UHGV virus genome: UHGV-0110177
DNA: 26,194 nucleotides
Direction: 5' to 3' (one strand)
Origin: a virus
Part shown: positions 4,158 through 23,512 of the stretch, in pieces
Layout: the number at the start of each line of letters is the position of its first letter
How positions within the stretch are numbered: the stretch's first letter is position 1
The notes under the pieces: model-generated
Databases searched by the model: none
What the model saw: the letters and a program-made list of their open reading frames with translations, nothing else
What the model was told of the DNA's origin: nothing
Position numbers and translations under genes: made by a program

Positions 4158-7049
4158 TTATGCCTGTACGCGCAGCGCTTCAAGGCGGCGCACATCAAAA
4201 TCGTTGAGTTCTTCGGCGTAATCTTCGGTAATCGGCGCTGGCCATTCGCCAGTGTCGAATCCGTTCGCGATGGCGCGCATTGCTTTGCGGTATTCCAGCA
4301 TGCCGAGTTCAAGCAGTTCTTCGGATGCCTCGATGATGGCGATCCAGTGGTAGTTCTCGTCTTTGTTGACGAATATCCAGAAAAACTGGTCCAGCGCTGC
4401 GGTTTCGCAGTACATGGCAGCGCTCAGGTGATAATCGCGATCGATGATTTCCCGGTGCAACTTCGCGCGCAGACCTTCCTGCTTGATATTCCACATGCTG
4501 ATAGTCTTCAGGTCAGCGCCGATGCGCAGGCCGCCCATGTCAATTTCAAGGTCAGGGCGCACGCGGATTTCCAGCCCGGTTTCCTCATCAATACCGAAAT
4601 AGCTCACCTCTACGGCGCGGTTCGGATGCGTCAGCAGCTTCCCGGCGGTCGGGTGATTCAGCAGCGCTTTCTGGATGGCCTGCGCGGTGCTCAACTGCTG
4701 GCGGGTAACCAGAATTTTATCGCCGGGGTTTTCGCGCCATGCGTCAAGCAGCTCGTCGGCAAACACTGTTTCAGGTTTGACGGATTTCACTGCCTGAATC
4801 AGATCCGCTTTGGTGCCGGATACTTTCAACGGCTGTGGCTTCTGTGCTTCCTGTGCAACGAGATCAGGATTGATGATCGCCAGTTGCTCAAGCAGCGCGT
4901 CACGGCTTCCGCTGGTTTTAACCGGCGCGGGCAGGGTGGCGTTGTATTCTTTGATGCAGGCCTTCATTGCCGCTGCTGTATGCTTAGTCCCGTTTTCGAT
5001 GCGCTGGAACTCTTCAGGCAATAGCTCATATGACGCATACGCTTCGTCGACGGATGCCCCAAGCGGTAATGGCGCGGGCAGGGTGGCGTTGTACTCTTCC
5101 AGCAACGCTTTGATATCGTCTGCGGTGAGTAATGCCGGCAGGCTGGCGTTGTGTTCGTCGATAACCGCGCGGATCGTCGCTGTCGTCGTGAGCGCGCCTT
5201 CCGAGATTTCCGGTTCGATGCTGAACTCTTTTTCCAGTTGTTCAGGCTGTAACGCCAGCGCGTGCACCAGGTTCCCCATATCCAGAACTTTGGTGCGTTC
5301 TTTCTGGATGGTTTTGGATACGTGGCGCGCTTCGAAATACATCAGACTTACACGTGCATCTTTGACCATTGTCGAACTGATGCCATTCGCCGCGTGATAT
5401 ACCTCGTTCGGTACGCCTTCATAACGCCCCGGCTCGAAGTATTCCGGCCACACTGACGCTGGCTCTGGTTCTTCCTGTTGCATTTCCGGCACGTTTTGTT
5501 GCGTTTCTGGCTCAGAATGGCTTGCAGAATCGTTGTTCTGGCTCACTTCCGGCTGATGGTGGTCTACATCGGCTTGCTCGCCGGTATCTGCCTCTTCACC
5601 ATTCCCCAAATCACTTTCGCTTGCGAGCAGCGCATCACCAGTCTGTTCTTCATTACCGTCAGTTTCTTGAACCTGCACATCGGCGGCGTCCTCATTTTCC
5701 GTTTTTTCTCCCTCATTTGAGGCGGCGTTGTAGTCTTCATGAACCCACTTCGGATCGTTAGGGTCACTGATACCTTCAACGTAATCACCGCGCGCAGCTG
5801 CGAGTTGTCGGTTTACTTCTTCAACGGATGGTTCATCCTGTCTTACTGGCGTTGGCATAGGCATGGACGAACGTCCGCAGGCAATATCAACGACAAGCGG
5901 ATCGGGATTGGCGTGGTCAGTTTCTGTCAGCACCTTATTCAGGTACTCGCGGTGGCGAAACGGGGATTTGTATAGTTCATCTGGTGTGGTTTTTACTGTT
6001 GCAACGATGCATGCGCGGGAATAGTCCAGACCACCAGGCATTGACACGAACAGTTCGCGCGTTGCCAGCCACTCAGGGTCGTCAACTGCGTTCATGATTG
6101 AGTTAGCCTTTAGTTCGATCTGCAATGGCAGAGAATAAATATCAAATTCGTACTGACGCGCCAGCAGGCCTAAGGCTATTTCAAATTCAAGACCGAGAGT
6201 GGTCTGGGGCATCTTGCGATCGGATGCAATTCCGCCGCCAGCGTTCGCGCCGCTTTCAGTACGCTGAATAGCTGATACACGATTACCTTTGCACCACTCT
6301 TTAACGAGCAACCCGCGATCAATATGAGGGGTATCGAACCATGTTTTCAGAAACTGGATAACGCTTGCCAGCTCAGGGATTTTGCCATCAGCAGGAAACA
6401 CGTTCTTAACGGCATTTACCGCTTTATGGATATCGTGTTCAATGGCCTTTTTGAATGGTTCAACATTCTCAGCCGCAAGTAAAATGTTCTGGACATATGA
6501 GTTATCAGTGTCCATTTCCAGAGCGAGAATTGCTTTTTTCTGCTCTGCATCGACATGATAGAGATACTCGCCATCGCCAATATGTTGGGCCAGTATGCGA
6601 TGACGGAAGGGCATCGTTGCCACAACGGTTAACTGAGGGTGTTCAGGTAGATCGCCATTGTCTTCAGTTGACGCCTGATCGTGCTGGATAATTTCGCCAG
6701 TTTCGGTATCAACACCATCAACGATACGCTGACGGGCGACGGCAACGGCCTCAGAAGAGGGCAGCGTAACACCGGGGATCTGTACCCAGGTCATGTTGTC
6801 TTTGCCGAGCTGGTAGAAATCGCAGAACGTTAAGCTGAGTTCGCCTTCCGGCGGCAGTTCGTTAACGACAGGGAAATTAGTGGCGACAGCTTTAAAATAA
6901 TCTTTCAGCTTTGCGCCGGATTTAATCAGGAGATAATCCAGTGTGGCATTTGCCGATTCAAAATCATCACTGCACCAGAGAACCGCATCTTTTTGTCCTG
7001 ATGATTTTTTTGCTTTGCGGACTAAAAATACAGGATTAGTTCCACTCAT
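4158..7049 (-). CDS. recE: Exodeoxyribonuclease VIII (RecE-like), 963 aa
   Basis: N-terminus from ATG at 7049 (MSGTNPVFLVRKAKKSSG...VLWCSDDFES...DYLLIKSG...KAVATNFPVVN) matches E. coli RecE N-terminus from memory; conserved LNKVLTETDHANPDP...DIACGRSS block; SD GAGGAT upstream; the ORF-track start at 7259 is a 70-codon over-extension. Confidence 0.85.
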   Translation of the reverse strand: MSGTNPVFLVRKAKKSSGQKDAVLWCSDDFESANATLDYLLIKSGAKLKDYFKAVATNFPVVNELPPEGELSLTFCDFYQLGKDNMTWVQIPGVTLPSSEAVAVARQRIVDGVDTETGEIIQHDQASTEDNGDLPEHPQLTVVATMPFRHRILAQHIGDGEYLYHVDAEQKKAILALEMDTDNSYVQNILLAAENVEPFKKAIEHDIHKAVNAVKNVFPADGKIPELASVIQFLKTWFDTPHIDRGLLVKEWCKGNRVSAIQRTESGANAGGGIASDRKMPQTTLGLEFEIALGLLARQYEFDIYSLPLQIELKANSIMNAVDDPEWLATRELFVSMPGGLDYSRACIVATVKTTPDELYKSPFRHREYLNKVLTETDHANPDPLVVDIACGRSSMPMPTPVRQDEPSVEEVNRQLAAARGDYVEGISDPNDPKWVHEDYNAASNEGEKTENEDAADVQVQETDGNEEQTGDALLASESDLGNGEEADTGEQADVDHHQPEVSQNNDSASHSEPETQQNVPEMQQEEPEPASVWPEYFEPGRYEGVPNEVYHAANGISSTMVKDARVSLMYFEARHVSKTIQKERTKVLDMGNLVHALALQPEQLEKEFSIEPEISEGALTTTATIRAVIDEHNASLPALLTADDIKALLEEYNATLPAPLPLGASVDEAYASYELLPEEFQRIENGTKHTAAAMKACIKEYNATLPAPVKTSGSRDALLEQLAIINPDLVAQEAQKPQPLKVSGTKADLIQAVKSVKPETVFADELLDAWRENPGDKILVTRQQLSTAQAIQKALLNHPTAGKLLTHPNRAVEVSYFGIDEETGLEIRVRPDLEIDMGGLRIGADLKTISMWNIKQEGLRAKLHREIIDRDYHLSAAMYCETAALDQFFWIFVNKDENYHWIAIIEASEELLELGMLEYRKAMRAIANGFDTGEWPAPITEDYAEELNDFDVRRLEALRVQA

Positions 7050-7176
7050 TGTTTTATCCTCACTTCGTGTAGAATGGAGGCGCCTTAATGGCACCTCGGT
7101 TTTACCAAGTAGAATGTCCGGTTCGCTTTGGTCGGTTAGACCGGACAGGGCAAGCCCACCTCGTGTGGGCTTTTGC

Positions 7177-7464
7177 TTAATGAACGGTGCTGAAAACTTT
7201 TTCTGAGTAATCGAGTTTGTAGCTGCGGTAGTTGCCAAACCCGGCGTTATCGCCATCACTTACTTTCACGGACAACATTGAAATTGCCTCTACAGCACAA
7301 AGAGGACAGTCGAACTTGCCGAATACATAGCCACCGTCAAGAATGACCGTGACCGCGCCCGTTTCGGCTGAATGAATAACGCCTGATACTTTCTTCTCGC
7401 AGTTGAATACAGCCAATTCTTTATTCACTGCTTTCAGGTTCATTTCGATTTTTACGATTTCCAT
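7177..7464 (-). CDS. Hypothetical phage protein (95 aa)
   Basis: ORF in early-left operon. Confidence 0.5.
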   Translation of the reverse strand: MEIVKIEMNLKAVNKELAVFNCEKKVSGVIHSAETGAVTVILDGGYVFGKFDCPLCAVEAISMLSVKVSDGDNAGFGNYRSYKLDYSEKVFSTVH

Positions 7465-19574: not shown

Positions 19575-20171
19575 ATGGCGCAAACACTGTATTTTGAAAA
19601 GACCTTCCAGAACGCCCTGATTTCGGTTGATCCCGGAACCAGCGAATTTTTACAACTGTTACCAACAGGACAGTTGCTCACTGGTGAGTTCCGCAAGCCG
19701 CGAAACTACGCATTCCACAAAAAATTCTTCAAGCTATTGTCGCTTGGCTATCACTACTGGACACCAACCGGCGGACTTGTTGAGGAATCAGAGCGGTCGC
19801 TAATCTCCGGGTATATTGATTTCCTGTCATCAAACCCGACACAACGTAACGCGCTCCATAACGCTGCTGATATGTACCTGAATACTGTCGGACTGGTGCG
19901 TTCCCGCGAAGTCGTACTGCTGAAGCATTTCGAATCCTTCCGCGAGTGGGCAACTATTCAGGCGGGATTTTACGACGAATATATCATGCCCGATGGCAGC
20001 CGACGGCGCACGGCTAAATCCATTTCCTTCGCCAGCATGGATGATGCCGAATTTAACGGCGTCTATCAGTCGGTGCTCAACGTTCTCTGGAACTACATAC
20101 TGCGTCGAAAATTCCGTTCAGCGAATGACGTCGAGAACGCCGCCGCCCAGCTCATGAGCTTTGCGGGGTGA
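19575..20171 (+). CDS. Conserved phage protein of unknown function (198 aa)
   Basis: ORF in nin-like region. Confidence 0.6.
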   Translation: MAQTLYFEKTFQNALISVDPGTSEFLQLLPTGQLLTGEFRKPRNYAFHKKFFKLLSLGYHYWTPTGGLVEESERSLISGYIDFLSSNPTQRNALHNAADMYLNTVGLVRSREVVLLKHFESFREWATIQAGFYDEYIMPDGSRRRTAKSISFASMDDAEFNGVYQSVLNVLWNYILRRKFRSANDVENAAAQLMSFAG

Positions 20172-20377
20172 TGGCGATGAAGTATTCATATTTTCACCAT
20201 ACGGAATGCACCACCGAGCAGGCAGAGCGCCTGATTGCCGATTATCGGGCTCGCGGTATCAGGACCGAAAAAAGCCTCAACCCTGATTTCCTTACCTGGA
20301 CGGTCAGCGTGAAATTGCCAGAGTTCGGACGTCCGGCACGGACGCCGAGAACCTTCCGACAAAAGGTCTGGGGGTGA
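20171..20377 (+). CDS. Hypothetical protein (68 aa)
   Basis: ATG overlaps upstream stop (TGATG). Confidence 0.5.
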   Translation: MAMKYSYFHHTECTTEQAERLIADYRARGIRTEKSLNPDFLTWTVSVKLPEFGRPARTPRTFRQKVWG

Positions 20378-20379
20378 TC

Positions 20380-20661
20380 ATGGCTATTTATCGAAATAGG
20401 AAATGGCTCGCTGCCGTTGGTCAGATTGAGCGTTGCGTTCTATGTGGGGCGTGGGGGACGCAAGTAGCGCACCGCAATGAAGGTAAGGGGATGGGGCTTA
20501 AGGTTGATGATTGTGCAACTGCTGCGATCTGCGTGACCTGTCATTCAGAGATTGATAACGGGAAAAACCTCTCTCGTGATGAGCGTCGGCAGTTAATGGA
20601 TCGCGCTATCGTGCTTACTGTCATTGAGATAGTCCGCCGTGGGCTGGTGGTGCCAGTATGA
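20380..20661 (+). CDS. Cys-rich hypothetical protein (CxxC...CxxCH), 93 aa
   Basis: ORF in nin-like region; putative zinc-binding motifs. Confidence 0.55.
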   Translation: MAIYRNRKWLAAVGQIERCVLCGAWGTQVAHRNEGKGMGLKVDDCATAAICVTCHSEIDNGKNLSRDERRQLMDRAIVLTVIEIVRRGLVVPV

Positions 20662-21011
20662 AAATTTACGACATCACGCCGATCGGCAAGCCCAGAATGA
20701 CCAGGGCCGACAAATGGAAAACTCGACCAGCGATCATGCGTTACCGGGCATTCTGCGATGAAGCACGCCTGCGCAAAATTCATCTGCCGGAGTCCGGCGC
20801 CCACGTCACGTTCGTTATGCCGATGCCAGCGAGCTGGAGCAAAAAGAAGCGAGAGCAGTTCAACGGCAAGCCGCACCAGTCAAAACCCGACTGCGACAAC
20901 ATGCTTAAAGCACTAATGGATGCCCTGTTTGATGATGATTCCAGCGTCTGGGATTGTCGCATCACGAAGCTATGGGGCGAGAAAGGGCAGATCATCGAGG
21001 AGGCAAAGTGA
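20658..21011 (+). CDS. rusA: RusA-family Holliday junction resolvase (117 aa)
   Basis: Motif KPDCDNMLKALMDAL resembles the RusA catalytic D-x-D-N block; typical position before Q. Confidence 0.7.
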   Translation: MKIYDITPIGKPRMTRADKWKTRPAIMRYRAFCDEARLRKIHLPESGAHVTFVMPMPASWSKKKREQFNGKPHQSKPDCDNMLKALMDALFDDDSSVWDCRITKLWGEKGQIIEEAK

Positions 21012-21143
21012 AGCCCGAAGTTATTGAGTCTCTTCGCTGGCGCTGGCTGCGTCTTTGCATTTATCGCTACCGGGGATCTTTTCCGGTGGCATACCGCATC
21101 CTTCGCAATTACATCCGCATTGAAGCAAAACGGGAGCATCGAA

Positions 21144-21941
21144 ATGAAGCTTGAGTCCTTACCAAAATATTTTTCGCCTAAATCCATGATGCCCGGCGCT
21201 GTTCCATGCGGTATTTCAGCAGATACGCTGACTATTACTGACGTAATGGCATCCCTCGGGCTACTTTCCGCAAAAGCAGCGGTGGGTATTGAATTGTATC
21301 TGGCAAAAGCCGGGGTTTTATCTTCAGACAATATCATTGCCTACATCAAGAAGCTGGCAGAGCAGCGCGCAGAACGGCACGGATCGCTGCGGAAAATGGA
21401 AGAGAGTGAACGATCAAAATTTCTCGGTATTCTGGCGCGGTATGTTTTCCGCGATTATTCCCTCAGCGCGGCAAGCCTGGTGACGTGCAGTAGCTGTCAT
21501 GGCGCTAAATTTATTGATGCTGAGGTTTTCACGAACAAGGTTACTTACCCGGATGGTAAGCCACCAAAATGGGTAAAAGATACGAAAGGCATTTCTCCTT
21601 CTGACTGGGAAGTGTGGAAATCAGTACGTGAGCAAGTGCGCGTCGTGTGTAAGACGTGCGATGGTAAAGGCCATGTGAAAAACGAATGCCGTTGCCGGGG
21701 GCGCGGAGAAATTCTCGATAAGAAAAAATCAGAGTTGCAGGGCGTTCCGGTTTATAAAAAATGCCCGAGATGCAAGGGAAGAGGTCACCCACGCCTCAAA
21801 GATACCGAGATTTTTAAAGCGCTGGGAGTAACGGAAATGGTATGGCGGTACAACTATAAACAGTTTTTCGATCGGCTGGTGGAGCATTGCCATATTGAGG
21901 AATCCTATGCAGAAAAGGTTCTGGGAAACGTGACTCGATGA
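21144..21941 (+). CDS. Late-gene antiterminator Q-like protein (265 aa) with CxxC zinc-binding motifs
   Basis: Position immediately upstream of promoter plus short terminated transcript and lysis genes; CKTCDGKGH...CRCRGRG...CPRCKGRGH; SD GGGAG 7 nt before ATG. Confidence 0.6.
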   Translation: MKLESLPKYFSPKSMMPGAVPCGISADTLTITDVMASLGLLSAKAAVGIELYLAKAGVLSSDNIIAYIKKLAEQRAERHGSLRKMEESERSKFLGILARYVFRDYSLSAASLVTCSSCHGAKFIDAEVFTNKVTYPDGKPPKWVKDTKGISPSDWEVWKSVREQVRVVCKTCDGKGHVKNECRCRGRGEILDKKKSELQGVPVYKKCPRCKGRGHPRLKDTEIFKALGVTEMVWRYNYKQFFDRLVEHCHIEESYAEKVLGNVTR

Positions 21942-21987: not shown

Positions 21988-22035
21988 GATTCCAACGATG
22001 GGTTATTACGCCTGTAACGTTACAAGAATTAAGAA

Positions 22036-22060
22036 CCTCGCCTCGGCGGGGTTTTCTTTT
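22036..22060 (+). terminator. Rho-independent terminator (tR'-like): CCTCGCC-tcg-GGCGGGG then TTTTCTTTT
   Basis: About 66 nt downstream of the candidate late promoter. Confidence 0.7.
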
Positions 22061-22499: not shown

Positions 22500-22623
22500 G
22501 CTTTATCCTTTTTTGTTGAAAAAAATATTAACGGCATTTTGCAATAAGCCTTTAGTTTTTTTTAACAAACTCCAGCCAGGGTATCTTCAGCCGCAGAGCT
22601 GACATTGCCACACCCTCACATTG

Positions 22624-22650
22624 CCAGCCTGTCGCTGGCTTTTTTATTTC
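22624..22650 (+). terminator. Rho-independent terminator (GCCAGC-ctgtc-GCTGGC then TTTTTTATTT) ~100 bp upstream of holin
   Basis: Read directly. Confidence 0.65.
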
Positions 22651-22751
22651 AGGCTCACGGGAATCAATCACTACGTGCTTTGTTGAAAATCCAGCCCGAG
22701 GGCCTGACCCTACAACACACAGCTCCCGCATTTACCGCGAGGAGAGAGACT

Positions 22752-23024
22752 ATGAAGATGGACGAAAGATACAGCAACGCGACATACGGCAGCGCTGGTC
22801 TTGCGGCTTTCTTTGCCAGCCTGTCATTGCAGGACTGGGGCTTCATCATTGGCGTCGCTTTCAGCATCATCCTCGGCGTCCTGACATACAGGCTCAATAA
22901 GCGTGAGCAAATGAAGCGCACGAAGATACTGCAGGACATTCTGAACAAGACTGATTCAAGCAACCCATCTGCTACAGCCAAAGTTCTCGCCGATCTCGGA
23001 CAGAAAGCACCGAAGGAAATCTGA
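22752..23024 (+). CDS. Holin, two TM domains, pinholin-like (90 aa, MKM dual-start motif)
   Basis: Resembles phage 21 S21 pinholin pattern; SD GGAGAGAGA; precedes SAR endolysin. Confidence 0.7.
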   Translation: MKMDERYSNATYGSAGLAAFFASLSLQDWGFIIGVAFSIILGVLTYRLNKREQMKRTKILQDILNKTDSSNPSATAKVLADLGQKAPKEI

Positions 23025-23512
23025 TGAACAGCACCATGCGAAATAAAATTGCTGCCTCCATCGGTGGCGGTGCGATTGCTATCGCAACAGTCATGCTGTC
23101 AGGTAAAGATGGTCTTGAAGGTCGAGAATATGTGGCCTACCGAGATGTTGTCGGAGTGCTGACCATCTGCGATGGCCACACCGGATCCGACATAATCCCC
23201 GGAAAGCGATATACCGATAAGGAATGCGAAACACTAACCCGGAAAGATTTAACGCGTATTGCCGCGCAGGTTGATCCACATATCAAAGTGCCGACTACTG
23301 AAACTCAACGAGCAGCGATTTACTCTTTCGCGTACAACGTTGGCGCTTCTGCGGCCATCAACTCAACACTGCTGAAAAAACTCAATGCCAAAGAATACGC
23401 AGCGGCATGCGAAGAATTAAAGCGTTGGGTGTATGCCGGTGGTAAGAAGTGGAAAGGCCTGATGAATCGTCGCGATGTTGAGTATGAGGTTTGTACCTGG
23501 AGCCAGAAATGA
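23024..23512 (+). CDS. SAR endolysin (T4-lysozyme-like muramidase with N-terminal signal-anchor-release domain), 162 aa
   Basis: Gly/Ala-rich N-terminal TM ([18 protein letters not shown]) followed by catalytic E...D...T ([23 protein letters not shown]). Confidence 0.85.

Follow-up and report, generated by a model that had tools for sequence, protein, structure and literature searches.

Between the gene for a RusA-family Holliday-junction resolvase and the gene for a Q-type late-gene antiterminator, the virus genome UHGV-0110177 (26,194 nucleotides (nt), referred to at its full length as the window) carries a short open reading frame (ORF) of 48 codons, and the question raised by this locus is whether the frame encodes a small protein or is a by-product of translational coupling between its neighbors. 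The original prediction for this DNA had offered both, a small basic protein or a translational-coupling artefact. Our analysis identifies the frame, which lies on the forward strand at 21008–21154, very probably as ylcG, a true gene for a small protein that is found in lambdoid prophages; the element that carries it here is a Citrobacter prophage of Gifsy-2/SEN34 type. The coding sequence has a GTG start and 48 codons plus a TGA stop at 21152–21154, and translates to VKPEVIESLRWRWLRLCIYRYRGSFPVAYRILRNYIRIEAKREHRNEA; the assignment draws on the sequence itself, the family models NF033498 and phrog_2705, a deposited identical protein, and a ratio of non-synonymous to synonymous substitution rates (dN/dS) of 0.19. 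The gene is already known and annotated, with the ylcG family catalogued in NCBIfam, Pfam, and PHROGs.

The family identity is clear from profile and sequence searches. The YlcG of the window matches the NCBIfam model NF033498, “YlcG family protein,” with an E-value of 4.5e-21 and 74.3 bits (cut-off 30) over model positions 1–40 of 41, and PHROG 2705 (phrog_2705, function unknown) with an E-value of 1e-21. All close database relatives, which NCBI names as YlcG family proteins of Citrobacter and Salmonella, are annotated with Pfam PF26818 (Phage_YlcG); this was seen through the precomputed annotations of the relatives, as the family is newer than the Pfam-A copy searched, which lacks it and gave no match to the 48-residue peptide. 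An identical 48-residue protein, Cys17 included, is already present in NCBI as “YlcG family protein [Citrobacter]” on 20 contigs. Among phage genomes, tblastn found 87.5%-identical copies in the Salmonella phages SEN34, SPN3UB, and FSL SP-016 and in prophage Gifsy-2, and remoter copies in HK225, Gifsy-1, and Enterobacter phage CobraSix. RefSeq labels the SEN34 and SPN3UB homologues “YlcG family protein,” and the Gifsy-1 record points to ORF45 of phage 82, “YLCG_BP82.”

As a stand-alone peptide of 48 residues, in a family whose members have about 40–50, the product fits the core pattern [LI]R.[RK]W..LR...R..G[ST]....Y[RK]I[LI][RK]N: the family-core residues L9, R10, R12, W13, L16, R20, G23, S24, V27, and Y29-R-I-L-R-N34 are all present, and C17 is the sole departure. 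Codon 17 (TGC, 21056–21058) encodes Cys in the window and Arg in 42 of 46 unique homologues; because the variant recurs on the 20 Citrobacter contigs, it is not a sequencing error. The position of the gene agrees with the sequence match, as the order RusA, GTGA overlap, YlcG, 11-nt overlap, Q is a layout also found in 104 related loci and in the DLP12 prophage of Escherichia coli K-12. Megablast matches in E. coli genomes are confined to rusA and reach no further than position 20996, and the ylcG–Q module of the window is thus not of the E. coli type.

The length of the frame says little, since 41 ORFs of at least 30 residues occur in 3.5 kb and ORF length alone is not above chance; the significance of the ylcG frame comes from its homology and from purifying selection. 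The first locus set comprised the 104 loci, which were retrieved by YlcG similarity, a choice that favors intact copies. The frame is open over 43–48 codons in every complete copy of this set, the exceptions being one locus with 38 codons (L089) and one in which the end of the contig cuts the gene (L021). For codon analysis, 46 unique diverged core sequences were compared by pairwise dN/dS in all six frames. The YlcG frame, with a dN/dS of 0.18–0.19 and stops in 0/46 sequences, is the only one open in all; the other two forward frames gave 1.73 and 1.57 (stops in 22/46 and 42/46), two antisense frames 1.86 and 1.57 (15/46 and 25/46), and the antisense frame sharing third positions 0.38 (46/46). 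Entropy at codon positions 1, 2, and 3 of ylcG is 0.43, 0.35, and 1.00. The 23 phylogenetically independent pairs show 144 synonymous versus 93 non-synonymous differences at a synonymous-site fraction of 0.255, which corresponds to a dN/dS of 0.19 (binomial p = 3e-30). The ylcG peptide is under purifying selection, and this selection acts at the peptide level.

The same comparison disposes of two competing frames. An N-terminal extension of Q from the in-frame TTG at 21024 would use the frame with a dN/dS of 1.73 and stops in 22 of the 46 homologues and is spurious, and a 185-residue ORF on the minus strand (20780–21337) was rejected because each antisense frame is interrupted by stops in at least 15, and up to all 46, of the homologues.

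To avoid the bias toward intact ylcG, a second set of 80 loci was retrieved via the Q protein. Seventy of these have an intact ylcG, one has indels in the tail of the gene (L151), eight join RusA to Q through ATGA without ylcG, and one more lacks ylcG (L185), with a different upstream gene that ends about 30 nt before Q. In L151, which shares its contig with L089, two insertions of 1 nt each, at about 1150–1200 of the locus, affect the tail only and result in a 38-codon product with the 37-residue core intact; this is the sole disrupted ylcG found. Conservation of the frame in homologues had been proposed as a check on the original prediction, with indels in close relatives as the finding that would speak against it: 70 of the 71 Q-anchored loci bearing ylcG keep the frame, the exception retains the 37-residue core, and the Q-anchored sample thus does not display the feared disruption.

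Most of the positional details described earlier were recovered, some with correction. The 48-codon ORF was found exactly as predicted, from the GTG at 21008 to 21154, with a GTGA overlap at 21008–21011 in which the GTG (21008–21010) shares bases with the rusA stop codon TGA (21009–21011). The GAGGAGG said to precede it lies at 20997–21003, within the 3′ end of rusA and 4 nt before the GTG, and is a putative Shine-Dalgarno element of ylcG; the GGAGG element is present in most RusA and NinG contexts and weak or absent in some, for example gcaggaacatgcagcATGA. The frame does end inside the Q-like gene, but the overlap is 11 nt rather than the 10 nt claimed (ATGAAGCTTGA, 21144–21154), a length shared by 63/63 loci with an EAKxExxNEx tail. 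Likewise, the description of the peptide as Arg/Trp-rich holds for Arg (10 of 48 residues) and not for Trp, of which there are two, with W13 alone conserved. The ribosome-binding site of Q is located inside the ylcG tail, with GGGAG at 21132–21136, a 7-nt spacer, and the ATG at 21144.

Core and tail of the gene behave differently. Codons 2–38 (21011–21121) encode the conserved basic core, predicted by AlphaFold2 to form a helical hairpin, in which L9, R10, R12, W13, R20, G23, S24, V27, Y29-R-I-L-R-N34, R37, and I38 are the conserved residues, and codons 39–48 with the stop (21122–21154) form a variable tail that coincides with the translation-initiation region of Q. Beyond position 38, the sequence follows the class of the Q N-terminus almost one-to-one (EAKREHRNEx with M[KN]L[ED]SLPK; QQNAGExx with VKN[LI]SYIR), whereas the core does not: core variants such as RYRGSFPVAY, RYRGSVLVDY, and RRPGSVLVDY, among others, combine with either Q family and any upstream family. 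It follows that the tail is part of the Q module, with the last ten ylcG codons functionally belonging to the Q initiation region, and that the core is an independently conserved unit.

The product is basic, as had been proposed, with an isoelectric point of 10.6 and a net charge of +6.6, and its grand average of hydropathy of −0.71 indicates that it is not a membrane peptide. AlphaFold2, run on a 15-sequence alignment, returned a two-helix hairpin (helices 3–20 and 25–47) with a mean predicted local distance difference test score of 75. An exhaustive search of 1.84 billion representative proteins with a hidden Markov model (HMM) found 60 relatives only, which are stand-alone peptides of 19–99 residues apart from one spurious 1083-residue repeat protein. 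The PDB profile search matched only de novo designed TIM barrels, compositional hits that were dismissed as spurious, and Foldseek comparison of the AlphaFold model with PDB and BFVD gave 0 matches. No PADLOC-DB defence model matched the YlcG of the window, K-12, or Gifsy-1 (0 families at E ≤ 1). The possibility that the locus encodes an RNA element instead of the ORF, or as well as it, was also considered and rejected, as the ylcG region has no unusual RNA structure (fold z-score 0.16), no Rfam family, and no promoter-like site; a lone weak terminator-like match within ylcG (21039–21053, 5-bp stem) is at chance level.

In the window, ylcG is the fifth gene of a six-gene nin-region chain on the forward strand (19575–21941) that encodes a DUF1367 protein, a 69-residue ORF, a YbcO-like HNH protein, RusA, YlcG, and Q, and whose joints are five 4-nt NTGA overlaps and, as the last one, the 11-nt overlap. 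The upstream gene (20658–21011, forward strand) is assigned to the RusA family by PF05866 (57.3 bits) and phrog_140, and the downstream gene (21144–21941, forward strand) to the Q-type antiterminators by PF03589 (164 bits) and phrog_127 (304 bits). About 90 nt past the Q stop, a G+C-rich 10-pair hairpin followed by a T-run (22032–22055, forward strand) lies upstream of holin-like (22605–23024) and lysozyme (23024–23512) genes, which is the position expected of a late-promoter-proximal terminator read through by Q. Elsewhere in the window, a match to the Hfq-binding small RNA isrB (Rfam RF01386, 74.7 bits, gathering score 35) was found at 7087–7175 on the forward strand, opposite the 5′ end of a 1033-residue minus-strand ORF (4158–7259).

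The wider comparison revealed a fixed joint with exchangeable neighbors. Across the first set, ylcG starts with ATG in 90 loci, GTG in 10, and TTG in 4, and in 104/104 the start codon forms NTGA with the upstream TGA, behind at least five unrelated upstream families: NinG/Rap (PF05766, two subtypes), RusA (PF05866, two subtypes), the YbcO-like HNH family, and two proteins of unknown function, one of 114–147 residues (phrog_1621) and one of 74 residues (phrog_3496). RusA or NinG is upstream in about 90% of loci. Downstream, all 102 complete loci of the set have a Q-type antiterminator, from PF03589 in 88 and from PF06323 in 14, and ylcG and Q overlap by 11, 4, or 1 nt, or else the ylcG stop and the Q start are no more than 5 nt apart. 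Five divergent YlcG members were looked up by exact sequence. The next gene encodes a PF06530 Q in one, a Q-like DUF1133 protein (phrog_753) in another, and a Q-like phrog_304 protein in a third; in one divergent locus, KilA-N and DUF968 genes separate ylcG from the Q-like gene, and L108 has no called gene downstream, with a 107-residue ORF that begins in an ATGA overlap with the ylcG stop.

The joint is preserved in eight of the nine Q-anchored loci without ylcG. In these eight (L169–L173, L186, L189, and L190; about 1190–1210 of each), the RusA stop overlaps the start of a Q that is 66–86% identical, with the joint aaaATGAAGCT. This makes the gene an optional cassette, whose presence or absence falls precisely on the ATGA joint. 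In three further loci (L027, L084, and L086, with ylcG at 2501 or 2061), RusA is absent and ylcG directly follows the YbcO-like HNH gene; their joint, ending in ggtgccagtATGA, is the joint that precedes rusA in the window, and represents another clean module swap at an ATGA junction.

Comparison with known members places the window copy close to the Gifsy-2 group. The Gifsy-2 (STM1022.1n), SEN34, and SPN3UB genes encode the 87.5%-identical 48-residue protein mentioned above and share the Q family and the 11-nt overlap with the window, but they start with ATG rather than GTG and are preceded by NinG/Rap (PF05766) rather than RusA. The YlcG of the K-12 DLP12 cryptic prophage (b4509) is 50% identical to that of the window over the 34-residue core, and both genes directly follow rusA with an NTGA overlap (ATGA in K-12). 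Like the window copy, K-12 YlcG and phage 82 ORF45 have 46–48 residues, precede a Q gene, and possess the motifs W13, G-S, and YRIL[RK]N; the window copy differs from both in its GTG start, in Cys17 for Arg, and in an EAKREHRNEA tail paired with a PF03589 Q across the 11-nt overlap. The phage 82 and Gifsy-1 types have a PF06323 Q downstream, while in K-12 a short quuD of 127 residues has its annotated start 85 nt past ylcG. In this region of K-12 (L105, 2231–2460), ylcG ends in GGAGTATGA, which resembles a relic of an overlapping Q start and suggests that the original ylcG–Q joint was lost in cryptic DLP12. Small ORFs of the nin region of lambdoid phages, such as lambda ninH and P22 ninZ, are short and dispensable-looking, with overlapping stop and start codons, and lie between the replication genes and Q. 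They are packed like ylcG, yet no sequence relationship to them was detected, as the exhaustive profile search returned YlcG-like stand-alone peptides only.

What the peptide does can be approached through the alternatives. As a pure translational-coupling spacer, the frame would merely carry ribosomes from rusA to Q and its peptide would be functionless. The universal start/stop overlaps with both neighbors and a tail dictated by the Q initiation region are what such a spacer would have; strong purifying selection, with residues invariant across members down to about 50% identity, is not, and neither is the retention of the same core beside unrelated Q families with differing initiation regions. 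Nor is a spacer needed, as the eight loci with RusA joined directly to Q demonstrate. We give this explanation next to no credence: coupling is not a full account of a frame whose peptide sequence is itself conserved, and the artefact alternative can now be discarded on quantitative grounds. Only slightly less improbable is a regulatory leader or arrest peptide, in which nascent YlcG would control, within the ribosome, initiation at the overlapping Q start. A conserved short peptide whose gene immediately precedes that of a dosage-sensitive regulator and overlaps the start of the latter, before at least five Q families, would suit that role, but the distance from YRILRN to the stop varies (9, 11, 12, or 14 residues), the stop/start geometry ranges from an 11-nt overlap to a 5-nt gap, and the most conserved residues span the whole 38-residue core instead of a C-terminal arrest segment. 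In addition, the same Q family occurs without the cassette in 8–9 of 80 loci, the messenger RNA (mRNA) has no special structure (z = 0.16), and in the divergent locus with KilA-N and DUF968 genes ylcG is separated from the Q-like gene altogether. YlcG thus displays neither the fixed spacing of motif to stall or stop nor the obligatory linkage to a regulated gene that SecM/TnaC-like peptides have.

Two explanations in which the peptide acts with a neighbor are unlikely, though distinctly less so. An accessory subunit of the Holliday-junction resolvase, working with the upstream RusA or NinG on branched DNA, would be in keeping with a very basic peptide, with the prevalence of RusA or NinG upstream (including RusA in 3/5 divergent contexts), and with K-12, where rusA-ylcG is handled as one HusR-activated operon. 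Against this, ylcG also stands behind the YbcO-like HNH gene with RusA absent and behind two unrelated genes of unknown function, the core variants do not sort by resolvase type, RusA is found without ylcG at the same position, and RusA alone reportedly resolves junctions in vitro. We hold an accessory factor of Q antitermination or late-gene timing, acting in trans on RNA polymerase, the qut-paused complex, or late mRNA, to be just as doubtful. In its favor, the product is an Arg-rich peptide predicted to be helical, and a Q-type gene, from several unrelated families, directly follows in 102/102 complete loci of the first set and in 3/5 divergent contexts. However, the core shows no co-variation with the Q family, so any target would need to be a host component that is conserved; phages with the same Q family can lack YlcG, K-12 retains ylcG beside a degenerate, non-overlapping quuD, and PDB profile, HMM, and Foldseek searches found no homology to known antitermination factors. 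More generally, the fact that core variants combine freely with any resolvase or Q family argues against a partner-specific interaction with either neighbor. Both accessory roles are sub-hypotheses of low probability, and each loses weight because co-variation is lacking and because there are loci without the partner or without YlcG.

We therefore return to YlcG as a genuine small protein encoded by an optional cassette, for which the following mode of action can be proposed. Ribosomes finishing rusA may re-initiate on ylcG, aided in the window by GAGGAGG, and ribosomes ending ylcG may in turn re-initiate on Q; coupling at both joints would be expected from what is established about overlapping stop and start codons in phage operons. 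The cassette would then hand translational coupling onward unbroken and, as RusA would couple to Q alike where ylcG is absent, could be called “coupling-neutral.” The cassette is dispensable for Q of the same family. The basic 38-residue core (net charge about +6.5, predicted hairpin, not hydrophobic) would act in trans as a small accessory protein that Q would not require in order to work; with low confidence, its most plausible target would be nucleic acid, or a partner that handles nucleic acid, at the delayed-early to late transition.

No observation speaks against the family identity. Several points weigh against the rest of this picture. The window copy combines a GTG start with the unusual Cys17, a variant that is nonetheless widespread in Citrobacter; the proposed mode of action is drawn from composition and position only; the AlphaFold model is moderately confident and its alignment of 15 sequences shallow; the 60 HMM relatives include no informative domain fusion; and the PDB profile, HMM, and Foldseek searches provided no sequence or fold analogue that would support nucleic-acid binding. 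The lack of a relative with a solved structure lowers any claim to membership among the known hairpin or Arg-rich nucleic-acid binders, and is still compatible with nucleic-acid binding by YlcG.

A bolder proposal, which we regard as improbable, casts YlcG as a micro-regulator that acts in trans on the early-to-late switch, a basic hairpin that would bind a conserved component of the host (RNA polymerase, ribosome, or mRNA) and tune Q-dependent late expression, or would bind branched DNA and tune the resolvase. It is still conceivable because the peptide is strongly constrained and has neither an analogue nor a known target. If true, it would account for one core being kept at the joint between resolvase and Q whichever resolvase or Q flanks it.

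Published experimental information on ylcG is sparse. In K-12, HusR activates rusA-ylcG mRNA in stationary phase (PMC12844172), and the same paper cites Hemm et al. 2008 for the induction of ylcG in stationary phase. Production of the protein, reported for K-12 YlcG, has indirect evidence in this citation and in the purifying selection on the frame. Overexpression of ylcG from the ASKA collection gave a non-specific glycogen-deficient phenotype (PMC2853380), the only phenotype found. In a methanol-evolved strain, complementation with ylcG was tried as well, and the genes singled out as important there do not include ylcG.

For annotation the value of the finding is small, as the family is already modelled and the exact protein deposited. 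YlcG is one of many strongly conserved phage micro-proteins, and its fixed position before a late-gene regulator makes it a reasonable, if non-urgent, target for small-protein work.

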